DNA from: Podarcis muralis
Lineage: Eukaryota
NCBI RefSeq assembly: GCF_964188315.1
Contig: NC_135657.1
Location: 108,872,001-108,936,000 of the forward strand
Direction of reading: 5' to 3'
Length of the DNA stretch: 64,000 nucleotides
Shown here: in pieces, positions 4,816-34,698 of the stretch
Position numbering within the stretch: the stretch's first letter is position 1
Layout: every line of letters begins with the position of its first letter
Position numbers and translations under genes: made by a program
The notes under the pieces: generated by a model
The model's input: the letters and a program-made list of their open reading frames with translations, nothing else
Databases searched by the model: none
Told to the model about the DNA's origin: nothing

Positions 4816-5286
4816 TGCCAACAAAGGTCCGTATAGTTAAAGCCATGGTTTTCCCAGTAGTGATGTATGGAAGTGAGAGCTGGACCATAGAGAAGGCTGA
4901 TCGCCGAAGAATTGATGCTTTTGAATTATGGTGCTGGAGGAGCTTCTTGAGAGTCCCATGGTCTGCAAGAAGATCAAACGTATCCATTCTTAAGGAAATC
5001 AGCCCTGGGTGCTCACTGGAAGGACAGATCCTGAAGCTGAGGCTCCAATACTTTGGCCACCTCATGAGAAGAGAAGACTCCCTGGAAAAGACCCTGATGT
5101 TGGGAAAGATGGAGGGCACAAGGAGAAGGGGACGACAGAGGACGAGATGGTTGGACAGTGTTCTCGAAGCTACAAACATGAGTCTGACCAAAGTGCGGGA
5201 GGCAGTGGAAGACAGGAGTGCCTGGCGTGCTCTGGTCCATGGGGTCACGAAGAGTCGGACACGACTAAACGACTAAACAACAACAA
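4816..5286 (+). mobile_element. Bov-B (RTE) LINE, 5'-truncated 3' end
   Basis: PTKVRIVKAMVFPVVMYGSESWTIEKADRRRIDAFELWCWR...HGVTKSRTRLND* followed by a CTAAACAACAACAA tail. Confidence 0.93.
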
Positions 5287-5781: not shown

Positions 5782-6135
5782 AGGTAAAGGTAAAGGGACC
5801 CCTGACCATTAAGTCCAGTCATGACCAAATCTGGGATTGCGGGACTCATCTCGCTTTATTGGCCGAGGGAGCCGGCGTACAGCTTACGGGTCATGTGGCC
5901 AGCATGACTAAGCCACTTCTGGTGAACCAGAACAGCGCACAGAAATGGTGTTTACCTTCCCACCGGAGCGGTACCTATTTATCTACTTGCACTTTGACGT
6001 GCTTTCGAACTGCTAGGTTGGCAGGAGAGGGACCGAGCAATGGGAGCTCACCCCGTCGCGGGGATTCGAACCGCAGACCTTCTGATCGGCAAGTCCTAGG
6101 CTCTGTGGTTTAACCCACAGCGCCACCCGCGTCCC
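5782..6135 (-). mobile_element. Sauria SINE, full length
   Basis: GGGACGCGGGTGGCGCTGTGG head with tRNA-like A/B boxes (GGTTCGAATCC) and an (ACCTTT)n tail. Confidence 0.92.
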
Positions 6136-6551
6136 TTATAATACTACTTAAAAGGTAGTATTATACTGCTTTAATTGTACACTGCAAGTTGGGCCTGAGA
6201 TAAAATCCCTTCACCTTAAAAGCCAGCATATCAAGCAGAGTTGGGTCCAGGTATAGTAGAGACCTTCAGCAAGACACCCTCCACAGACCACCCAACATCA
6301 CCTCCTTACTGTCCTTCTCATGACTTGCTCTTCTCTTCATTTCCATCATTTGCTATCACCATTTTGGCTACCAGGAAAAAAATCCACAAGCATAAAGGCA
6401 GTGACGTTGACTGTTCTGCCTTCACACTACCATTGTTTCCTGGGTGAGTGCACAAGGTGGGTCAACAAGTTGAAGAGGAAGTACAGGTCATAAGAAGAGG
6501 TACAGAGGACTCTTGTCCTCCTTAATAGATGCCCAAACATGAATGCCAACC

Positions 6552-7591
6552 TATTAAACAATTTTGGAATGAAATATATGAAGAAATCAAAAAGATGTTT
6601 AAAGTATCTTTCAGTAAAAAACCGGAGGCATTCCTTTTAGGTATAATCACAAACGATATTCCTGACAATCAAAGGAAAGTATTCCTTTACGCAACGGCAG
6701 CTGCCAGGATGCTTATAGCAAAAAATTGGAAAGGGAGAAAAATTCCATCAATGAAAGAATGGCAAATTAAATTTTGTGAATATATAAATCTGGCAAGACT
6801 CACAGCTTTCATAAGGGGACAATCGGACCAGAAATTATTAAAAGAATGGGGATGTGCTAATGAGTATATGAAAAAAACATTGTTCTGGAGTAAGCATATC
6901 GGTATGTAATGAATGCAGGGACGCGGGTGGCGCTGTGGGTAAAACCTCAGCGCCTAGGACTTGCCGATCGCATGGACGGTGGTTCGAATCCCCGCGGCGG
7001 GGTGCGCTCCCGTCGTTTGGTCCCAGCGCCTGCCAACCTAGCAGTTCGAAAGCACCCCCGGGTGCAAGTAGATAAATAGGGACCGCTTACCAGCGGGAAG
7101 GTAAACGGCGTTCCGTGTGCTGCGCTGGCTCGCCAGATGCAGCTTGTCACACTGGCCACGTGACCCGGAAGTGTCTGCGGACAGCGCTGGCTCCCGGCCT
7201 CTAGAGTGAGATGAGCGCACAACCCTAGAGTCTGTCAAGACTGGCCCATATGGGCAGGGGTACCTTTACCTTTATGTAATGAATGATGCTTTGCAGAGTT
7301 AAAGAAAAAGAAAAATGGTGTAAAAAGTATAAAGATAGAAGTAATCTACATTAGACACAACAATTTAGAAAGAGTAAAATTTTTGAGGTCTTAGAACAAA
7401 GGAAGGAAGTCAATATGTTTATATGTATGTAATGACTAGATTAGAATGAAGATATGGTTTTATTTGTAGATGTGTGCTTTTTTGTTATTGTGTGTTCTGT
7501 TTTTCTTTCTTGTTTGTATAGTTTTATTTTGGATTCAATGTTTGTAATTTCTGTTGTAATTTTGCATTGAAAATAAAATTTATTAAAAAAA
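6552..7591 (+). mobile_element. L1 LINE 3' fragment with about 25-bp TSD, interrupted by a SINE
   Basis: IKQFWNEIYEEIKKMFKVSFSKKPEAFLLGII...KEWGCANEYMKK, then 3' UTR and A-rich tail. TSD taatagatgcccaaacatg(aatg)ccaacc at 6523-6551 and from 7592. Confidence 0.88.
6918..7272 (+). mobile_element. Sauria SINE, full length, nested in L1
   Basis: Head GGGACGCGGGTGGCG, tail TACCTTTACCTT; 13-bp TSD tatgtaatgaatg at 6903-6915 and 7273-7285. Confidence 0.94.
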
Positions 7592-8383: not shown

Positions 8384-8820
8384 GTTGTTGTTGTTGTTTA
8401 GTCGTTTAGTCGTGTCCGACTCTTCATGACCCCATGGACCAGAGCACGCCAGGCACTTCTGTCTTCCACTGCCTCCCGCAGTTTGGTCAAACTCATGCTG
8501 GTAGCTTCGAGAACACTGTCCAACCATCTCGTCCTCTGTCGTCCCCTTCTCCTTGTGCCCTAAATCTTTCCCAGCATCAGGGTCTTTTCCAGGGAGTCTT
8601 CTCTTCTCATGAGGTGGCCAAAGTATTGGAGCCTCAGCTTCACGATCTGTCCTTCCAGTGAGCACTCAGGGCTAATTTCCTTAAGAATGGGTGCGTTTGA
8701 TCTTCTTGCAGTCCATGGGACTCTCAAGAGTCTCCTCCAGCACCATATTTCAAAAGCATCAATTCTTCAGCGATCAGCCTTCTTTATGGTCCAGCTCTCA
8801 CTTCCATACATCACTACTGG
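8384..8820 (-). mobile_element. Bov-B LINE 3' fragment
   Basis: (GTT)n tail and gtcgtttagtcgtgtccgactc; reverse complement of 4816-5286. Confidence 0.92.
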
Positions 8821-9186
8821 GTTTTATTTGATATAAGATGTTTATTTTAAAGTTATTGTGACTTTTTTGTATTGGATCAGATTGTTCTTACATGTATGAG
8901 CTCTGCTGTCTGTTTTTTGTTTTTGTTTTTTGCTTCTTCAGCTTGTAAAGCACCTTATAAACCATAGTAATATAAAAAGGCAGTATACAAATTAAAAGTG
9001 AAAAGACAAGAAAATGAAGTATCTAAGTTTAAATGGCAATGTCACCCCATGGCAGAAACAAAGCTTCTTAACATTAGTGTCCCAAGCAACTTTTTAAAAA
9101 ACTATAGTTGGGAATAATCAGTATGTTTAGAATCCTGTATAGAAGACTATCCGTCACAGAGTAGGACCACCCTAGAAACACATTAT

Positions 9187-9426: not shown

Positions 9427-10378
9427 AAAATCAGCAGCTTCCAAGCATCCATTCTAAAGTAAACACCATGTAATGGCTAGGCCATCAAATGGAAATGCAG
9501 AAATCCCCCAGGTACTCATGCATGCATAGGTACCAAGAGAGGAGAGGAATTTAATTGGCATTCTGAGTATCACTTCGGATTGTGACATGCATCTTTTGCG
9601 ACCTGTTTGTCATTGAGATAAGAATGTGTTGCGGTCCTGGAACAAAGATAAAGTGAAAAGAATGTGGCAAGGAAATAAATCTAAGCCAAGCAACAACCAC
9701 AGTCACAACTTGTAACTTATGAAAAGCCTGTTTTCATTTACAAGATGGGAAAGATGCAATTCCATGTTTGTACTTGTGCCTATCTGGAATAAGGCCATCT
9801 AAATTAAAGTTTTTCTTCAATTGCTACAAACACACAAACACACAGCCAAAGAATCCTTCAGTTTCCTTTCTCTCACTCTATACTGAAATATATTGCCTCA
9901 TCCTCATTACATTGTTCAGTTTCTGAGAATATTTGAACATACGTGGATATGCACAAACATATCCACGTATGTTCAAATATTTCTATATGAATATGAATAT
10001 AGAAATAAAACAATAGCACTAGATTTGAGCTAGAACTGAAGGAGATTCTTGTCCTGAAATGAATAAATATGTTCAGATGCACTGATACTTAATCCAGTTA
10101 ACTTAAGAAGAGAATGTGCTAAAATACACTAAACACAGTTATATTTTTAAGGTTTTTAGGGGGGGGGGGTTATTAAAAAAAAAAGAGATGAGGTTAAGAA
10201 ATGGAAGTGTGAAAACATCAGCTTAATTTTCAGGCCTCAAAAACACATTAGACTTTCCACACTGGGATACCTTTCCTACAAGAAAAGGCCAATGCAATTG
10301 GTTTTGTGCCCTTTTGGTTTAGAGAAATGACAACAGTGTGGGTGGATGGGAGAATGCCAGAGATTTATAAAGGTCACT

Positions 10379-10742
10379 AAGGTAAAGGTAAAGGTACCCC
10401 TGCCCGTACGGGCCAGTCTTGCCAGACTCTAGGGTTGTGCGCCCATCTCACTCAAGAGGCCGGGGGCCAGCGCTGTCTGAAGACACTTCCGGGTCACGTG
10501 GCCAGCGTGACAAAGCTGCATCTGGTGAGCCAGAGCCGCACACGGAAACGCCGTTTACCTTCCCGCTAGTAAGCGGTCCCTATTTATCTACTTGCACCCG
10601 AGGGTGCTTTCGAACTGCTAGGTGGGCAGGCGCTGGGACCGAGCAACGGGAGCGCACCCCGCCGCGGGGATTCGAACCGCCGACCTTTCGATCGGCAAGT
10701 CCTAGGCGCTGAGGCTTTTACCCACAGCGCCACCCGCGTCCC
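10379..10742 (-). mobile_element. Sauria SINE, full length
   Basis: 14-bp TSD ttataaaggtcact at 10365-10378 and 10743-10756. Confidence 0.95.
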
Positions 10743-10937
10743 TTATAAAGGTCACTATTGGTGTGGAAAAACATGAGACAGGCATTTTTTCACCTTCTCT
10801 TACTAATAACATGAGACTTCAGTGTCCCTTGATTAAACCGGCTGAAGGTACATTCCTGACTAGGGCCAGCCATGAGGCAGATTGAAGCAGCCATCTCAGG
10901 TAGTGGAATCCAAGTGGAGCCTCCAAGAGCATGTCCC

Positions 10938-23452: not shown

Positions 23453-23715
23453 ACCCATAGCCCTCTTGAACAATAGCTCCCATCATCCCTGACCTTTGAC
23501 CTTGCTGGCTGAGACTGGAGTCCAATAACTGCACCTAGAGACATCTAGGTTCCCCACCACTGTTTTACACCAAGCAACTCTTCTTGAACCCATTATATCT
23601 CTCCCACCTTATCTTCTGCAGGGATGGAACAGAGTTCTGTCCCAATTAGGATTGAGGCTGCACTCCACCATAGAACCTGCCCCATTCTGATGGATTCAGC
23701 ACAAGTCAAACGTAG

Positions 23716-24337
23716 TGTGATGGCCTGGGACTTGGGCTCAGACTCGGAGCCAGAGGAGTCTCAGTCCACACCGGATCCTTTGCCCCAGGCGGCATCTGAA
23801 CCTAGTGTGGGGCCTGATTCTGGAGAGCCCCAGTCTGCATAGGTTCCCCTGCAACAAGCACCAGCTGGGCCGAGTCAGGGGCCTGAGTCTGCTCTGGCTT
23901 CAGATGCGGGGATTACCTCGTTGCCTTCAGCTGGGCAATCACTTACAGCTGCTCCACTACCAACTGGGTCAGGAGAGGCTGAGGCAGCCTCTGGGTCTAG
24001 TAACCCACCGACATCTCCCGAGCTGCAGAGACTGAGGTCTGAGAGAAGGAGAGACCTGAGTACTTGCAGGAGGAGTGCTTACCTTCAGGCGAAACAGGGA
24101 GGTGAGTCACCAGGGGATCAGGACTGGCCGTTACCCCGACAGAGATAAAAGGCTGCTGGACCCTGCCACAGGTTGCGGGCGCAACATTGCTGTTTGCCAG
24201 AACCTGCCTGTGATCCTGTGCCTGACCTTGCCTGGTTTCCTGCCTCGTGTCCTGCCTTGGTCCTGTCGGACTGACTCTTCGCAGAACCCTTGGATTCGGG
24301 ACCAGACCTGAACTGCGTTACCCCCAGACCCAGCACA
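23716..24337 (+). mobile_element. Solo LTR, probably Ty3/Gypsy, 622 bp
   Basis: TGTG...CACA termini; 5-bp TSD cgtag/tgtag (one CpG-type change); TATA-like GATAAAAGG near 24144. Confidence 0.85.
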
Positions 24338-24960
24338 TGTAGCAAGGTGTCATCACTGCTCCCTCACTACACCACAAGGAAGGGCTTAAAGTGGCAAAAG
24401 GTTGTTGCCAGGCTGCACTAGGCTTCACCTCACATGCCTAAAAGCTTTCAGAGAAGGCAAGGAGATGACTCTTTACTGTGTAACAGCCTCAAATCACGAA
24501 CAAGGAAGCCAACACCAGGGATGAAGAACCTATTGGTCTCCAAACCCCCATCAGCCCCAGCCAGTGTGGTCAAAGATGCTCCAAGGTTTAGTCCAGCAAC
24601 CTCTAAATGGCTGCAGGTTCCCAACCTTTGGCCTATGCCATGCACAAAGTGAGTAGCAGAATCATTCTAGATTCTAGAGTTTGGGCAAAGAGGGATGTAT
24701 TCATTCCAGTATGTTCCAAATTTTTCTGGAGTGGAACAGGTGATTTCACTCATTCACCCCACCTTTCAGTAGTCCTTTGAGTACAGAAAATTCATGTTTT
24801 GTGCATTGTGAGCTATAGCCACATTCTCTTTCGGTCCTCCCTATAGAAAATGCTGGGGATCGTATGGGTCCCATAGGGATTGCTACTGACCAAAGTTCAG
24901 GTTGGAAATTTCATTGGAAATTGTCTAGCACTTGAGTATAAGTGTTTTGCACATCTCATA

Positions 24961-29792: not shown

Positions 29793-31238
29793 TAACTAAC
29801 AAGCTTGGGTACCAAAATAGAGTTGTGCTGAATGAATTTGAATGCATTGCGAATATAGCATCAATTGTAATTCTCAGAATCATTAAAACACTCCCCTGTC
29901 CCCCGATGATCCAACAAATCACACTGAAAGAGCAACAAATTCCCATGTGTTCTATATAAAAGACCATCTGCTGATGAGATGCAAGACAAATCAAATCGCT
30001 GTCAACAAAACGTTAGATGTGGGAATAGACACGGGCATCACATTGCCCTCAAAATTTGCCAATTTGTACGGAATGTACGGAATGAAGCTGCCATTGATGG
30101 CTATGCAAGTGCATGACAGTGCACAAAGAGTAAACAAATAAGTCAGCATTAAGTTTTAGGGATATTGTAAATGTGTGGTTGTTCTTCATTGGATTGGGTT
30201 TGTTTTCTATTTCCTTACAAAATGAATGCTGAAGCATCTTGTTATTTTCATTCTGCCAATTCCCAAGCTGAAATCATTTGTTTTCTCATGTGGAAAATAC
30301 ACATCACGTTTTAGCTTTAACCCATTGAAGTCTCCTCAAAAGTAATGGATAAATTTGCTACACTGATGGCCAACTTTACTTCTGATGTGCCAGGCTAGGA
30401 ATGCAGCCTCCAAGGCTTTCTCTGGCAATGGCTTTTGCTAGCATGGGTAATGTCCTCCATTGCCCACCGGCCTCTGCCAAGTAGCACAAAGTGGTGGGAC
30501 AGAATGAAAGGCCTTATCTTTGCCAGGAAGGTAGGCTAGGCATAGAGAAGCCCTTCCGGCCTCATTTTGGACCCCAGCATTCATGCCAGGGAGGCCAGTG
30601 GGCCAAAGGATGACCTCAAAGGATGACACAGCTGGTCATCAAAAGAACTAGACTTCTATCCAAACAAAATGATCCACCCAAATCTGGTAGGCAGGTCAAC
30701 ATTATCTCTAGGCTCACTCCTTGCAGTTGTTGTTGTTTAGTCGTTTAGTTGTGTCCGACTCTTCGTGACCCCATGGACCAGAGCACGCCAGGCATTCCTG
30801 TCTTCCACTGCCTCCCGCAGTTTGGTCAAACTCATACTGGTAGCTTCGAGAACACTGTCCAACCATCTCATCCTCTGTCATCCCCTTCTCCTTGTGCCCT
30901 CCATCTTTCCCAACATCAGGGTCTTTTCCAGGGAGTCTTCTCTTCTCATGAGTTGGCCAAAGTACTGGAGCCTCAGCTTCAGGATCTGTCCTTCCAGTGA
31001 GCACTTCCTTAAGAATGGATGCTGTCAGGGGCTCAGGAGCAGAGGCACAGGGGAGAGAGGAAATGGAGAGCGAGGGGGAGGAATCTGAGGGCAGCGGAGG
31101 GCAGAATGACAGTGACCCGAGAGATTCCATGAGCCTCTCCAGTGAATCAGAAGATTCCCAGAAGGGGGCGCCGATGGCCAGGGCACAAGGGGGGTCCCAG
31201 GGGGGACACACCAGAAGCAGGGGGCCAGCGGAGACTCC

Positions 31239-33449
31239 CAGAGACACATACGCTGGGCAGAGTTCTTTGTGGATTTCGACTTCCGGATAGAATACATCCC
31301 GGGAGACAGCAACGTCATGGCGGATGCACTATCCAGGAAGCCGCAGTATCTCGAGGAAGCGGCACCGGTGGCGGCCAAGCACATTTTCGCACCGAAAGCA
31401 TGGGCGTGTGCTTCAGCCACAGTGGACCTGGACGCGGTGCGTCGCGCGCTGCAGACGGACTCGTTCGCACGATCCAAGATGGAGGAGGTGCAAAGAGGCA
31501 CAGCGAAGGACGAAGAGTTCCAGATACGCGACGGACCACTCCTCCGCAGAGGGGTGCTCTACGTGCCGGGGGACGACCTCCGTGCGAAAGTCCTGCAGCA
31601 GTTACACGACGCGCCCAGCGCTGGGCACTTCGGCAAGGACAAGACAGCGGAATTAGTAGCCAGAGACTTTTGGTGGCCCAAGATGAGGGGTGAAGTTGAG
31701 GATTACGTCGCTCGGTGTGACACATGCCAAAGGGCCAAACCAGTACACAGGGTGCCGGCGGGACTGCTGGAACCGCTTCAGACGCTGTTTGATTCGTGGG
31801 AGAGAGTGGCCCTGGACTTTGTCACAGATCTGCCCAGCTCGAGAGGCAAAACAGCGGTGCTCGTGGTCGTAGACCTGTTCACCAAGATGGCGCACTTCAT
31901 TCCTTGCGCGAAGGTGGCCACGGCGGAACAAACCGCCAAGCTGTTCATAGACCACGTGTTCAGAGTTCACGGCTTGCCGAGGTCCATCCTATCCGACCGG
32001 GGGCGCCAGTTCGTCTCGAGTTTCTGGCAGAAGCTGCTGGGCATCCTGAACGTCAAGATCAACTTAGCGTCGGCACGACACCCGCAGACCAACGGACAAG
32101 CGGAGAGGGTCAACGCCATCATGCAGCAGTACCTGCGATGCTACGCGAACCAACAACCCTCGACCTGGGTGGACTACCTACTGCTGGCCGAGTTTGCCTA
32201 CAACAACACGAAGCACGCGTCTACAGGGGTGACGCCGTTCTTCGCCAACAATGGGCGGCATCCCAGAACCTTCCCGGGGTTAGAGACGAAGGGGGAGGGG
32301 GAGCCACAGGGGGCAGAGCACTTGGCAGCGGAGTTGCAGGAGGTCCACGAGCAACTCCGAAGGAACTTAGAACTAGCAAAACACGCCTACAAAGTGCAGG
32401 CAGACAGGCACAGGAGAGTCGGGGAAGACATCCAGGTGGGGGACTGGGTATGGTTAGCAGCCCAGGCAGTGCCAGCCAGAACGTTAGCTAAGAAGAAGCT
32501 TAGACACAAGCAGCTAGGGCCTTACCAAGTCGAGGCGCAGATCAATCCAGTGGCCTTCCGGTTGACGCTCCCGGAGGGTTCCAGAATGCACCCGGTCTTT
32601 CACAGGTCGGTGCTCACACCCTACAAGGAACCCCACAGGTTTCAGACCCCAAGGGCCGCACCAGACCCACTCAGCAAATCACCAACAGGGGAGGGGTCAC
32701 CGAGGGCGGCACCACTCAACAAGGTCACGGAGATTTTGGACTCGAGATGGGGGGAAGAGGGAGTTGAATATCTCCTCGCAGAGGAAGGTACCCCGGCCAG
32801 CGCCAACAGGTGGGTACCGGACTATGCCTTGGAGGAGCGATACCTCAAAGACGAGTTCCATGCACTCTTCCCTCACAGACCTATGCCGGCAGATTTTTTC
32901 GACGACTGGCTTTTCACACCCACGCTCTCCGCCAGCACGTTCCAGGGGTTCTCATCAGCGGAGGAACCGGCGCCAGACACAAGCTCCCCAGAGGGATCGC
33001 TCTCGGGGTTTGGCACGGACCGCTCTTATTGGTGGGACAATCAACCGGAAGTTGGGTGGAGCAGGGGACTCTTACACGCAACCTCGCCCGAGGTGCCAGG
33101 GGGAGAGACGGACATGGACGGGTTGGGGGAGGATCCTGCATTCGAGCACAGCTGCAGAGAGATGGAAGCAGAGGAGATCGACGTCGACGAGCCTATTACG
33201 AGCTGGCCGGATCCAGATGACCGGCTGTGCACCAGGGGGAGAGAACGGTATCCCGCATTCACCCTCGCAGCACTGGAGCACCCGGAACCCGCACCCGAAG
33301 AGAGGGAGGGGGAAGGGGGGGCTTCGAGGGGGGGATGGATGTCAGGGGCTCAGGAGCAGAGGCATAGGGGAGAGAGGAAATGGAGAGCGAGGGGGAGGAA
33401 TCTGAGGGCAGCGGAGGGCAGAATGACAGTGACCCGAGAGATTCCATGA
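31239..33449 (+). CDS. Gypsy pol remnant: RNase H end, integrase, chromodomain and acidic tail; uninterrupted frame with no native start
   Basis: RWAEFF..FDFRIEYIPG (RNase H end); HHCC LHDAPSAGH...CDTC; DDE in ALDFV / LSDRG / QAERVN; GPY; chromo-like VTEILDSRW...EYLL...RWVP. Confidence 0.92.
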   Translation, partial: QRHIRWAEFFVDFDFRIEYIPGDSNVMADALSRKPQYLEEAAPVAAKHIFAPKAWACASATVDLDAVRRALQTDSFARSKMEEVQRGTAKDEEFQIRDGPLLRRGVLYVPGDDLRAKVLQQLHDAPSAGHFGKDKTAELVARDFWWPKMRGEVEDYVARCDTCQRAKPVHRVPAGLLEPLQTLFDSWERVALDFVTDLPSSRGKTAVLVVVDLFTKMAHFIPCAKVATAEQTAKLFIDHVFRVHGLPRSILSDRGRQFVSSFWQKLLGILNVKINLASARHPQTNGQAERVNAIMQQYLRCYANQQPSTWVDYLLLAEFAYNNTKHASTGVTPFFANNGRHPRTFPGLETKGEGEPQGAEHLAAELQEVHEQLRRNLELAKHAYKVQADRHRRVGEDIQVGDWVWLAAQAVPARTLAKKKLRHKQLGPYQVEAQINPVAFRLTLPEGSRMHPVFHRSVLTPYKEPHRFQTPRAAPDPLSKSPTGEGSPRAAPLNKVTEILDSRWGEEGVEYLLAEEGTPASANRWVPDYALEERYLKDEFHALFPHRPMPADFFDDWLFTPTLSASTFQGFSSAEEPAPDTSSPEGSLSGFGTDRSYWWDNQPEVGWSRGLLHATSPEVPGGETDMDGLGEDPAFEHSCREMEAEEIDVDEPITSWPDPDDRLCTRGRERYPAFTLAALEHPEPAPEEREGEGGASRGGWMSGAQEQRHRGERKWRARGRNLRAAEGRMTVTREIP

Positions 33450-33991
33450 GCCTCTCCAGTGAATCAGAAGATTCCCAGAAGGGGGCGCCGATGGCCAGGG
33501 CAAGGGGGGTCCCAGGGGGGACACACCAGAAGCAGGGGGCCAGCGGAGACTCCCAGAGCAGTAGCTGGAAATCAGGGCCAGCTTCCCCACCAGAGCGTAG
33601 TGGGGGGGAAGAGTCCCATAGGTCAGAGTCAGCGTCTCCTCCGGCAAGCAGGGAGGAGGAGTCAGGCCCAACTAGCGTCCCCGAAGAGGGGAGCAGCGAC
33701 AGGAGCAGTATAACGGTCAGAAGGAAGGTGGCAGGCTGGGCGCGCGCGCCAAGTTCAAATGTACAGGCGCGCGGGACAGCAGGAAGCCCGGATTGGGAAC
33801 CAGGTCCTAAAGCCCGCCGGAGGGAGGGGGAAGACTCGGGGGACTCAGCGTCAGAAGAGTCTAGAAAGGGGAAAACCCCGGCGGACAGGCGGACCCAGAG
33901 GAGGAAAGAACAACGGAAGAGGTGGAGCAAGGCTAGGGTCTTAAACTGGTGTCTGGGGGGAGGAGACTCAGACGGAGCTTCGGCGGTCTAG
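33335..33991 (+). CDS. U3-encoded ORF of the Gypsy 3' LTR (203 aa from ATG 33380); hypothetical accessory protein
   Basis: Open for 612 nt from 33380. An upstream ATG at 33335 is blocked only by TAG at 33365, which is CAG in the 5' LTR copy. Confidence 0.5.
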
Positions 33992-34698
33992 GGTTTAAGA
34001 CGTAGAGTTGCGCGCTGTGGCTGTAAATGAGAAACTGAACTTGAATAAAGACTATTTTATATAACAACGGACTGGCGTTGGTCCTCTGTGAGCTGGGACC
34101 TGAGGCAGCTCTGACAGATGCGTTTGATCTTCTTGCAGTCCATGGGACTCTCAAGAGTCTCCTCCAGCACCATAATTCAAAAGCATCAATTCTTCGGCGA
34201 TCAGCCTTCTTTATGGTCCAGCTCTCACTTCCATACATCACTACTGGGAAAACCATAGCTTTAACTATATGGACCTTTGTTTTTGTTTTTTTGTTTTTTT
34301 TAAAATAAAATTTTTATTGGTTTTTCACCTTTTATAAAGACAAAATACACACAAAAAAGACAAAAGACAAAAACATGTATAATTTCAGAAAATCCTACTT
34401 TCCTAACCTTGTTCCCTGACTTCCCCCCACCCCCCTTCATGCATCCCAATTCCCAAAATTATGTCAGCAAATTGGTATTTCTCCTCTTAACCATCTTAAT
34501 ATTACCTCTTTTATAATAAAAGATAAATTTTTCCTAAGTTGGACTCAAATTCCCTTCCATCGATTTCCCATTTTGTTTTAAAATAAAGGTCATATTATCT
34601 GAACCCAAAGGTCTTGAATGTTTTTTAAAATTCTATTCTTCCCTCCCTCCCATCCCCGGTTTTCGTCCCTTCCCAATACATGTCCAAAATAGCAGTTC

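Follow-up and report, generated by a model that had tools for sequence, protein, structure and literature searches.

A long terminal repeat (LTR) in the genome of Podarcis muralis raises the question of what its U3 region encodes. The LTR lies at positions 23716..24337 (+) of the 64,000-nucleotide stretch that was analysed (hereafter, the window; contig NC_135657.1), and its U3 holds a 143-codon frame with an arginine-rich, HMGN-like end. MMTV Sag and HIV Nef are likewise coded in U3 and read from the 3' LTR, as separate proteins from spliced RNAs. The first-pass annotation of the window proposed a small chromatin-tethering accessory protein of this type; the lizard frame is also U3-coded but is fused to Pol, as described below.

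The window LTR is a decaying solo copy

The LTR belongs to an old family (1A) of Tf1/Sushi-type chromoviruses. It has TG...CA ends with the terminal repeat TGTGATGG/CCAGCACA and a 5-bp target-site duplication with one mismatch (CGTAG at 23711..23715 and TGTAG at 24338..24342, both +), and internal sequence is absent on both sides; it is a solo LTR, as first annotated. When the sequence was re-read, the frame (23720..24148, +) was also as described: ATG at 23720, an in-frame TAG at 23840-23842 that breaks it, TAA at 24146-24148 within GATAAAAGG, and the peptide MAWDLGSDSEPEES...SPELQRLRSERRRDLSTCRRSAYLQAKQ. It begins with an acidic Ser/Pro/Glu-rich linker (23720..24022, +), the length of which varies between families (tails of 100-142 codons). 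The Arg-rich segment LQRLRSERRRDL (24023..24058, +) follows and is kept in both families 1A and 1B with codons swapped synonymously. The position of the HMGN-like motif (24068..24085, +) reads RRSAYL in the window copy, in which the anchor arginine is lost. The stop codon of the frame lies inside a TATA-like GATAAAA (24144..24150, +).

The window LTR is a high-copy sequence, with 1747 first-look candidates genome-wide (1.52 Gb); the 40 that were scored are 88-92% identical to it, self match aside, and it is ~9-10% diverged from its sister copies. The closest protein records to the window come from lacertid lizards. All 30 of the best copies end the frame with a stop at codon 143, in 11 of them it is open all the way from the ATG, and the window copy alone has a stop at codon 41. 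The frame is open in the family, as the annotation had supposed. Its length was dropped as evidence, because 142 or more codons without a stop arose in 280 of 1000 runs when a copy was simulated with a first-order model. The case for coding therefore comes from Pol read-through and codon-level constraint, frame length alone being compatible with chance. Decay among the old copies is neutral, with a dN/dS of 1.15 for the linker and 4 in-frame indels out of 18, and the window copy is a passive duplicate in decay. Several dispersed SINE/LINE-like repeat families also fill the window (4820-5286, 5925-7275, 8387-8821, 10359-10743 and others).

The U3 frame is the C-terminus of Pol

Where internal sequence is present, the Pol frame (integrase-SH3-chromodomain) continues uninterrupted across the polypurine tract into U3 and terminates beside the TATA box. 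A pattern of polypurine tract plus LTR start yielded 235 junctions, mostly from the younger sister family 1B, the internal region of which is 77% identical to that of the old-family copy L020. We read 30 of these junctions together with L020 (n = 31). In 26 of the 31, no stop interrupted the U3 frame over 387 or more codons upstream, and two more (L020 and L052) had the chromodomain in the U3 frame with an earlier stop; the rest were two frameshifted junctions and one chance flank. After the chromodomain the junction reads GRGDGV/MAWD in frame (the slash marks the LTR start), so the polypurine tract itself is translated.

Two LTRs with 0-4 mismatches were present in 19 of 20 fetched regions, and the long frame ended inside the 3' LTR in 19 of 19. 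Family 1B tails are 100-116 codons long and end in SP(D/E)LQRLRAERRRELV(A/S)PRRSARLKA. One natural sister-family copy encodes a 1575-codon Gag-Pol with gag, protease, RT, RNase H, integrase, SH3, a chromodomain (1395-1442) and a 110-residue U3 tail, and this whole element has the chromovirus domain order (Gag-PR-RT-RH-IN, chromodomain after integrase). For the family of the window LTR, only the part from the RNase H end to the chromodomain is covered (L020/L080). L020, a truncated and decayed copy, was the one among the 30 best old copies with integrase sequence upstream, and two more genome searches for old-family internal copies returned L020 only; read-through in this family therefore rests on L020 and the sister family. 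We concluded that the 143-codon U3 frame, which takes up about the first two-thirds of the LTR, is the in-frame C-terminal tail of Pol/integrase and not a separate accessory gene.

In a UniRef record, Pol already ends with the tail, and automated protein records carry it without comment. No Pfam family matched the U3 peptides, which contain no whole-protein HMGN domain, and a sequence search of solved structures with the last 47 residues gave no match. Among the young-family copies L061-L079, gag and pol form a single frame in 10 of 19 and overlapping frames in 6 of 19. The models P0050, P0054, P0181, P0182 and P0183 begin at the LTR ATG and are joined to gag or, once, to a receptor gene; they are probably annotation artefacts, and exon capture is possible.

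Promoter and priming

In all 11 whole elements tested, the bases after the 5' LTR complement (9-10 of 11) a site ~30 nt past the TATA-like box. Tf1/Sushi elements are known to prime themselves at a site that complements the 5' end of R (PMC6317226), and the lizard elements likely prime in this way rather than from a tRNA site. R would accordingly begin near window position 24175, at a site (24175..24185, +) that lies ~30 nt past the TATA-like box and complements the self-priming site of the sister family at 9 of 11 positions. The ATG at LTR nucleotide 5, which belongs to the terminal inverted repeat, would then lie ~450 nt upstream of the transcription start, so that the promoter of a solo LTR could not drive expression of the tail. 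A check of 11 LTRs found neither AATAAA nor ATTAAA. Four raw RNA runs gave 66-197 reads per run over a young element, mostly sense, and no splice joint was listed at this shallow coverage. An index of sequencing runs showed no RNA dataset with a match.

The frame is under purifying selection

The U3 frame is under protein-level purifying selection. We calculated dN/dS pairwise from unedited copies across 66 codons in two gap-free blocks, placed in register from the DNA alone, using 10 of the 30 old copies (those with an open 142-codon frame only) and 13 and 14 young copies from two subfamilies; the two copies of a third subfamily were omitted. The pairs are not independent, and the intervals given are 95% bootstrap intervals. 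Between the old family and the two young subfamilies, dN/dS was 0.22 (0.09-0.41) and 0.21 (0.09-0.38), and between the young subfamilies it was 0.35 (0.16-0.70). Thus the values of 0.21-0.35 over these 66 codons lie below 1, as the first-pass annotation had predicted for a coding frame. The other plus-strand frames gave 1.26-2.03, and the antisense frame that shares third positions mirrored the signal (0.27-0.38), as expected.

The coding part of 73 distinct young 3' LTRs contained six indel events, four of them multiples of three, and the only one shared (by 30 copies) was a multiple of three. In the non-coding part, 18 of 50 events were multiples of three, a count in which binning may have split events.

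An HMGN-like motif at the end of the tail

RRSARL occurred literally in 69 of the 73 young copies and in 13 of the 30 old ones (13-14 of 30 with R-R-S-x-R-[LI]). It is absent from the window copy, which has RRSAYL at this position; many other copies have RRSARL there, as had been suspected. The third arginine was the motif position most often lost in old copies (retained in 16 of 30), and the motif-internal serine and alanine were retained in 29 of 30. Pattern searches of the genome for a third RRSARL family or for other serine codons found neither; one search gave 17 matches, which proved to be an unrelated repeat and chance matches, another gave four matches against four in its control, and one gave none.

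A profile search for relatives in other species produced 941 matches, of which the best 120 were listed; many are automated gene models with unreliable ends. Five Anolis records end in RRSARIAAK (twice), RRSLRIAAK, RQSLRIAAK and RRNLRIAAK at the same place as the lacertid motif, and three of these five tails fit R-R-S-x-R-[LI]. The Anolis and lacertid linkers are barely alignable (weak similarity, E 0.009-0.5), and shuffled tails yielded RRSxR[LI] in 53-199 of 200,000. The motif was found in none of five long tails from snakes (Vipera, Crotalus) and not in the one tail from Rhineura, which ends in KRGRPVSLRPKR; both groups keep the acidic-then-basic layout. In all 13 squamate tails measured, the first part was acidic (net -9 to -24) and the last 35 residues were basic (+4 to +11). 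The idea that the LTR represents a general system thus holds for U3 coding, which is general in the lineage, and the motif recurs in a distant lizard, but it does not extend to a motif shared by snakes and Rhineura.

Frog and fish records had no consistent acidic-then-basic tail, and one Leptobrachium model carried RRSSR/RRSQRL close to its end. Among the best 150 representatives, near-identical own-family records aside, most were without the layout, which occurred in two, and not one of the 137 in which a chromodomain pattern was recognised had RRSARL. In a FastTree phylogeny (34 sequences, 219 columns), the tail-bearing squamate elements stood apart from those of frogs and fishes with moderate support (0.87).

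A candidate chromatin tether

The RRSAR[LI]-type motif of HMGN2, Dsup and Dot5 binds the H2A-H2B acidic patch (PMC12487698, PMC13347269). The lizard motif shares with these proteins the RRSAR[LI] core, its three arginines and a disordered setting, and seven of eight positions agree between Anolis RRSARIAA and Dot5 RRSARIAT. It differs in that it ends a retrotransposon polyprotein and has R, K or A at position 7 rather than the serine of RRSARLSA. Short arginine-anchor segments also tether viral genomes or integration complexes to nucleosomes in the acidic-patch tethers KSHV LANA, foamy virus Gag and MLV p12, the latter two of which hold integration complexes (PMC9040877, PMC12336834). Those are Gag products or a latency protein, whereas the lizard candidate sits on integrase and is U3-coded.

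From these sequence likenesses, we consider that the LTR-encoded integrase tail probably binds the H2A-H2B acidic patch with an arginine anchor like that of HMGN and tethers the integration machinery to nucleosomes. The tail would have to stay on mature integrase, from which the element's protease might release it, and RRSARL would grip the acidic patch as in HMGN2, Dsup and Dot5. Together with the cage-bearing chromodomain, to which the long acidic linker joins it, the anchor would form a two-point chromatin tether, and such a tether might give dispersed insertion. For the tail itself, the read-through, the order integrase-SH3-chromodomain-acidic linker-basic end, purifying selection and the recurrence of the motif in Anolis are established. 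Against its reading as an anchor stand the facts that the motif is not universal, that the sister clade uses other motifs, and that five residues make a short motif, basic integrase tails being also nuclear-import signals.

The last of these points leads to the possibility of an integrase tail whose basic end serves as a nuclear localisation signal or binds DNA or RNA non-specifically, the likeness to HMGN being incidental. Published work mentions nuclear-import signals of retrotransposon integrases (PMC3605345), arginine is abundant along the whole of the last 35 residues of the tails, and those of snakes and Rhineura retain the basic end only. An incidental likeness is hard to reconcile with the exact R-R-S-x-R-[LI]-x-A-K spacing that recurs in Anolis past a barely alignable linker, with the retention of the serine and alanine in nearly all old copies, and with a motif that is based on arginine and has few lysines; we regard this explanation as rather unlikely, if worth some weight. 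What is conserved might instead be DNA, a promoter element ~60-75 nt upstream of the TATA box, with the protein tail merely a tolerated stop-free linker. The frame stop does lie in or beside the TATA-like box, and the six motif codons (18 nt) show no synonymous change between the old and young family copies printed, while the neighbouring arginine codons differ synonymously, and a promoter element may thus account for the local conservation or contribute to it. That synonymous swapping next door nevertheless argues against a purely DNA-level constraint, as do the third-position excess with dN/dS of 0.2-0.35 over two ungapped blocks and the replacement of Leu by Ile in Anolis, an exchange at the protein level; this alternative seems improbable to us.

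The ATG at LTR nucleotide 5 could also give a separate small protein, either in addition to the Pol fusion or in its place, from an RNA that is spliced or started internally. This ATG is in good Kozak context (GTG ATG G), is present in the Anolis and Rhineura tails as well, and is the start of some automated gene models. It lies, however, within the terminal inverted repeat and upstream of the predicted R start, and pol supplies the frame without it. Further, it is missing in the snake relatives and in most sister-clade families. The accessory protein with its own ATG that was first proposed is not supported in view of these points and of the in-frame fusion to Pol, and we judge a separate product of any such kind very improbable. 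A probable arginine anchor on integrase is the reading that we retain.

Comparison with known chromoviruses

With the vertebrate Tf1/Sushi chromoviruses (Ty3/Gypsy), the squamate elements share the order Gag-PR-RT-RH-IN-SH3-chromodomain, the 5-bp target duplication and the self-priming site, but they add 84-142 U3-coded residues, whereas the retrieved frog and fish relatives have no consistent acidic-then-basic tail. In plant CRM elements, Pol runs into the 3' LTR, where a targeting motif is located (PMC3059260, PMC3605345). Pol of the lizard element likewise reads into the 3' LTR, as in CRM group A. In that group, however, a CR motif replaces the chromodomain, priming is by tRNA-Met and the elements are centromeric (PMC3059260, PMC3605345), whereas the lizard element keeps an upstream cage-bearing chromodomain, is likely self-primed, has an HMGN-like LTR end and, in family 1, is dispersed. 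The lizard element is therefore not a CRM member.

Thus the Pol-into-LTR layout is known from plants and the HMGN-like motif from host proteins, and their combination on a vertebrate retrotransposon integrase appears to be new. This combination was not found in the open literature that was searched, PMC3601003 and a 2026 centromere preprint among it; the search did not extend to repeat databases, supplements or subscription journals. How vertebrate Gypsy elements reach chromatin and choose it is little known, and an HMGN-type motif at the end of integrase is a short, directly testable candidate tether. If it acts in this way, use of the acidic patch would extend from retroviral Gag products to the integrase of a non-retroviral element. 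The acidic linker plus motif is also present, as a ready-made coding cassette, in thousands of solo LTRs.

A sister clade with different tails

A second LTR, at 33340, had been annotated as unrelated but of the same layout. It is the 3' LTR (33340..34116, +) of an internally deleted chromovirus of family 2 (31023..34116, +; target duplication GATGC), and in the same FastTree phylogeny of 34 sequences this element falls in the sister clade. The likeness of layout stands for the long U3 frame, which runs to 33991, but not for the end, RKRWSKARVLNWC (33914-33952), which is a different motif without RRSARL. The element consists of a partial 5' LTR joined to the RNase H end, followed by integrase, SH3, an atypical chromodomain and the 3' LTR, with an FxGF motif (FQGF; 32940..32951, +) after the chromodomain. 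The family 2 U3 frame is the Pol tail in other copies, whereas pol is out of frame with it in the window copy. Of 21 distinct family 2 junctions, 10 had a U3 frame without a stop in any of the 504 codons upstream, and 13 reached the common end ...RKRWSK(A/V/I)(R/K)xL(S/N)WC...ASxV. This type of deletion is shared by two copies from unrelated families, the window element (31023-31250) and L080 (7234-7300), in which the 5' LTR is broken inside U3 and joined to the RNase H end.

From the sister clade we read 50 SH3 matches (the 30 best and 20 picked from 150), which represent ~10 families and are not independent. The frame ran open beyond the junction peptide in 31, and all 31 had FxGF in an acidic context after a chromodomain without the first cage residue; the integrases (L113-L160) have one or two such motifs, for example EEEFEGF and EGSFEGF. 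A Cys-Trp pair followed a basic run near the end in 25 of the 31 open tails. An acidic linker with FxGF is the pattern of LEDGF- and HRP2-binding motifs (PMC9987994), which the sister-clade segments resemble in sequence. The U3-coded tails of L113, L118-L124, L128, L130 and L141-L159 have a basic run and then hydrophobic-Cys-Trp (RRRLGVKELLCWKK, RSLRRFTCWVKK, RLFCWKR), and those of family 2 have the order Trp-Cys instead.

Of 52 family 2 junctions, 27 lay at most 1 Mb from a contig end, compared with 0 of 26 for family 1 (C1-C3; one chance junction dropped; Fisher p 7.6e-7). The 3' flanks of family 2 were distinct, bar one duplicated pair among 21. The strong bias towards chromosome ends may reflect targeting or retention.

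We tentatively suggest, as a possibility that is still doubtful, that U3 in squamate chromoviruses is an exchangeable cassette of chromatin-tethering integrase motifs. The family 1 clade would mimic HMGN, with an acidic-patch anchor, a cage-bearing chromodomain and dispersed insertion, and the sister clade would pair a cage-less chromodomain with a LEDGF/HRP2-TIM-like FxGF and a basic Cys-Trp end, its family 2 inserting near chromosome ends. If so, mimicry of host motifs would steer integration in a vertebrate retrotransposon lineage. Sister families with differing tails and chromosomal distributions in one genome form a natural comparison for integration targeting.

In L144, the Pol tail of one family continues into family 2 LTR-like sequence, suggesting a nested insertion or a recombinant LTR. 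Young-family copies were regularly spaced or in tandem at C5:20412204-20448935 and C2:68124097-68129023. Contig C20 (30.4 Mb), which looks like a repeat-rich sex chromosome, accounted for a large part of the 150 scored SH3 matches.
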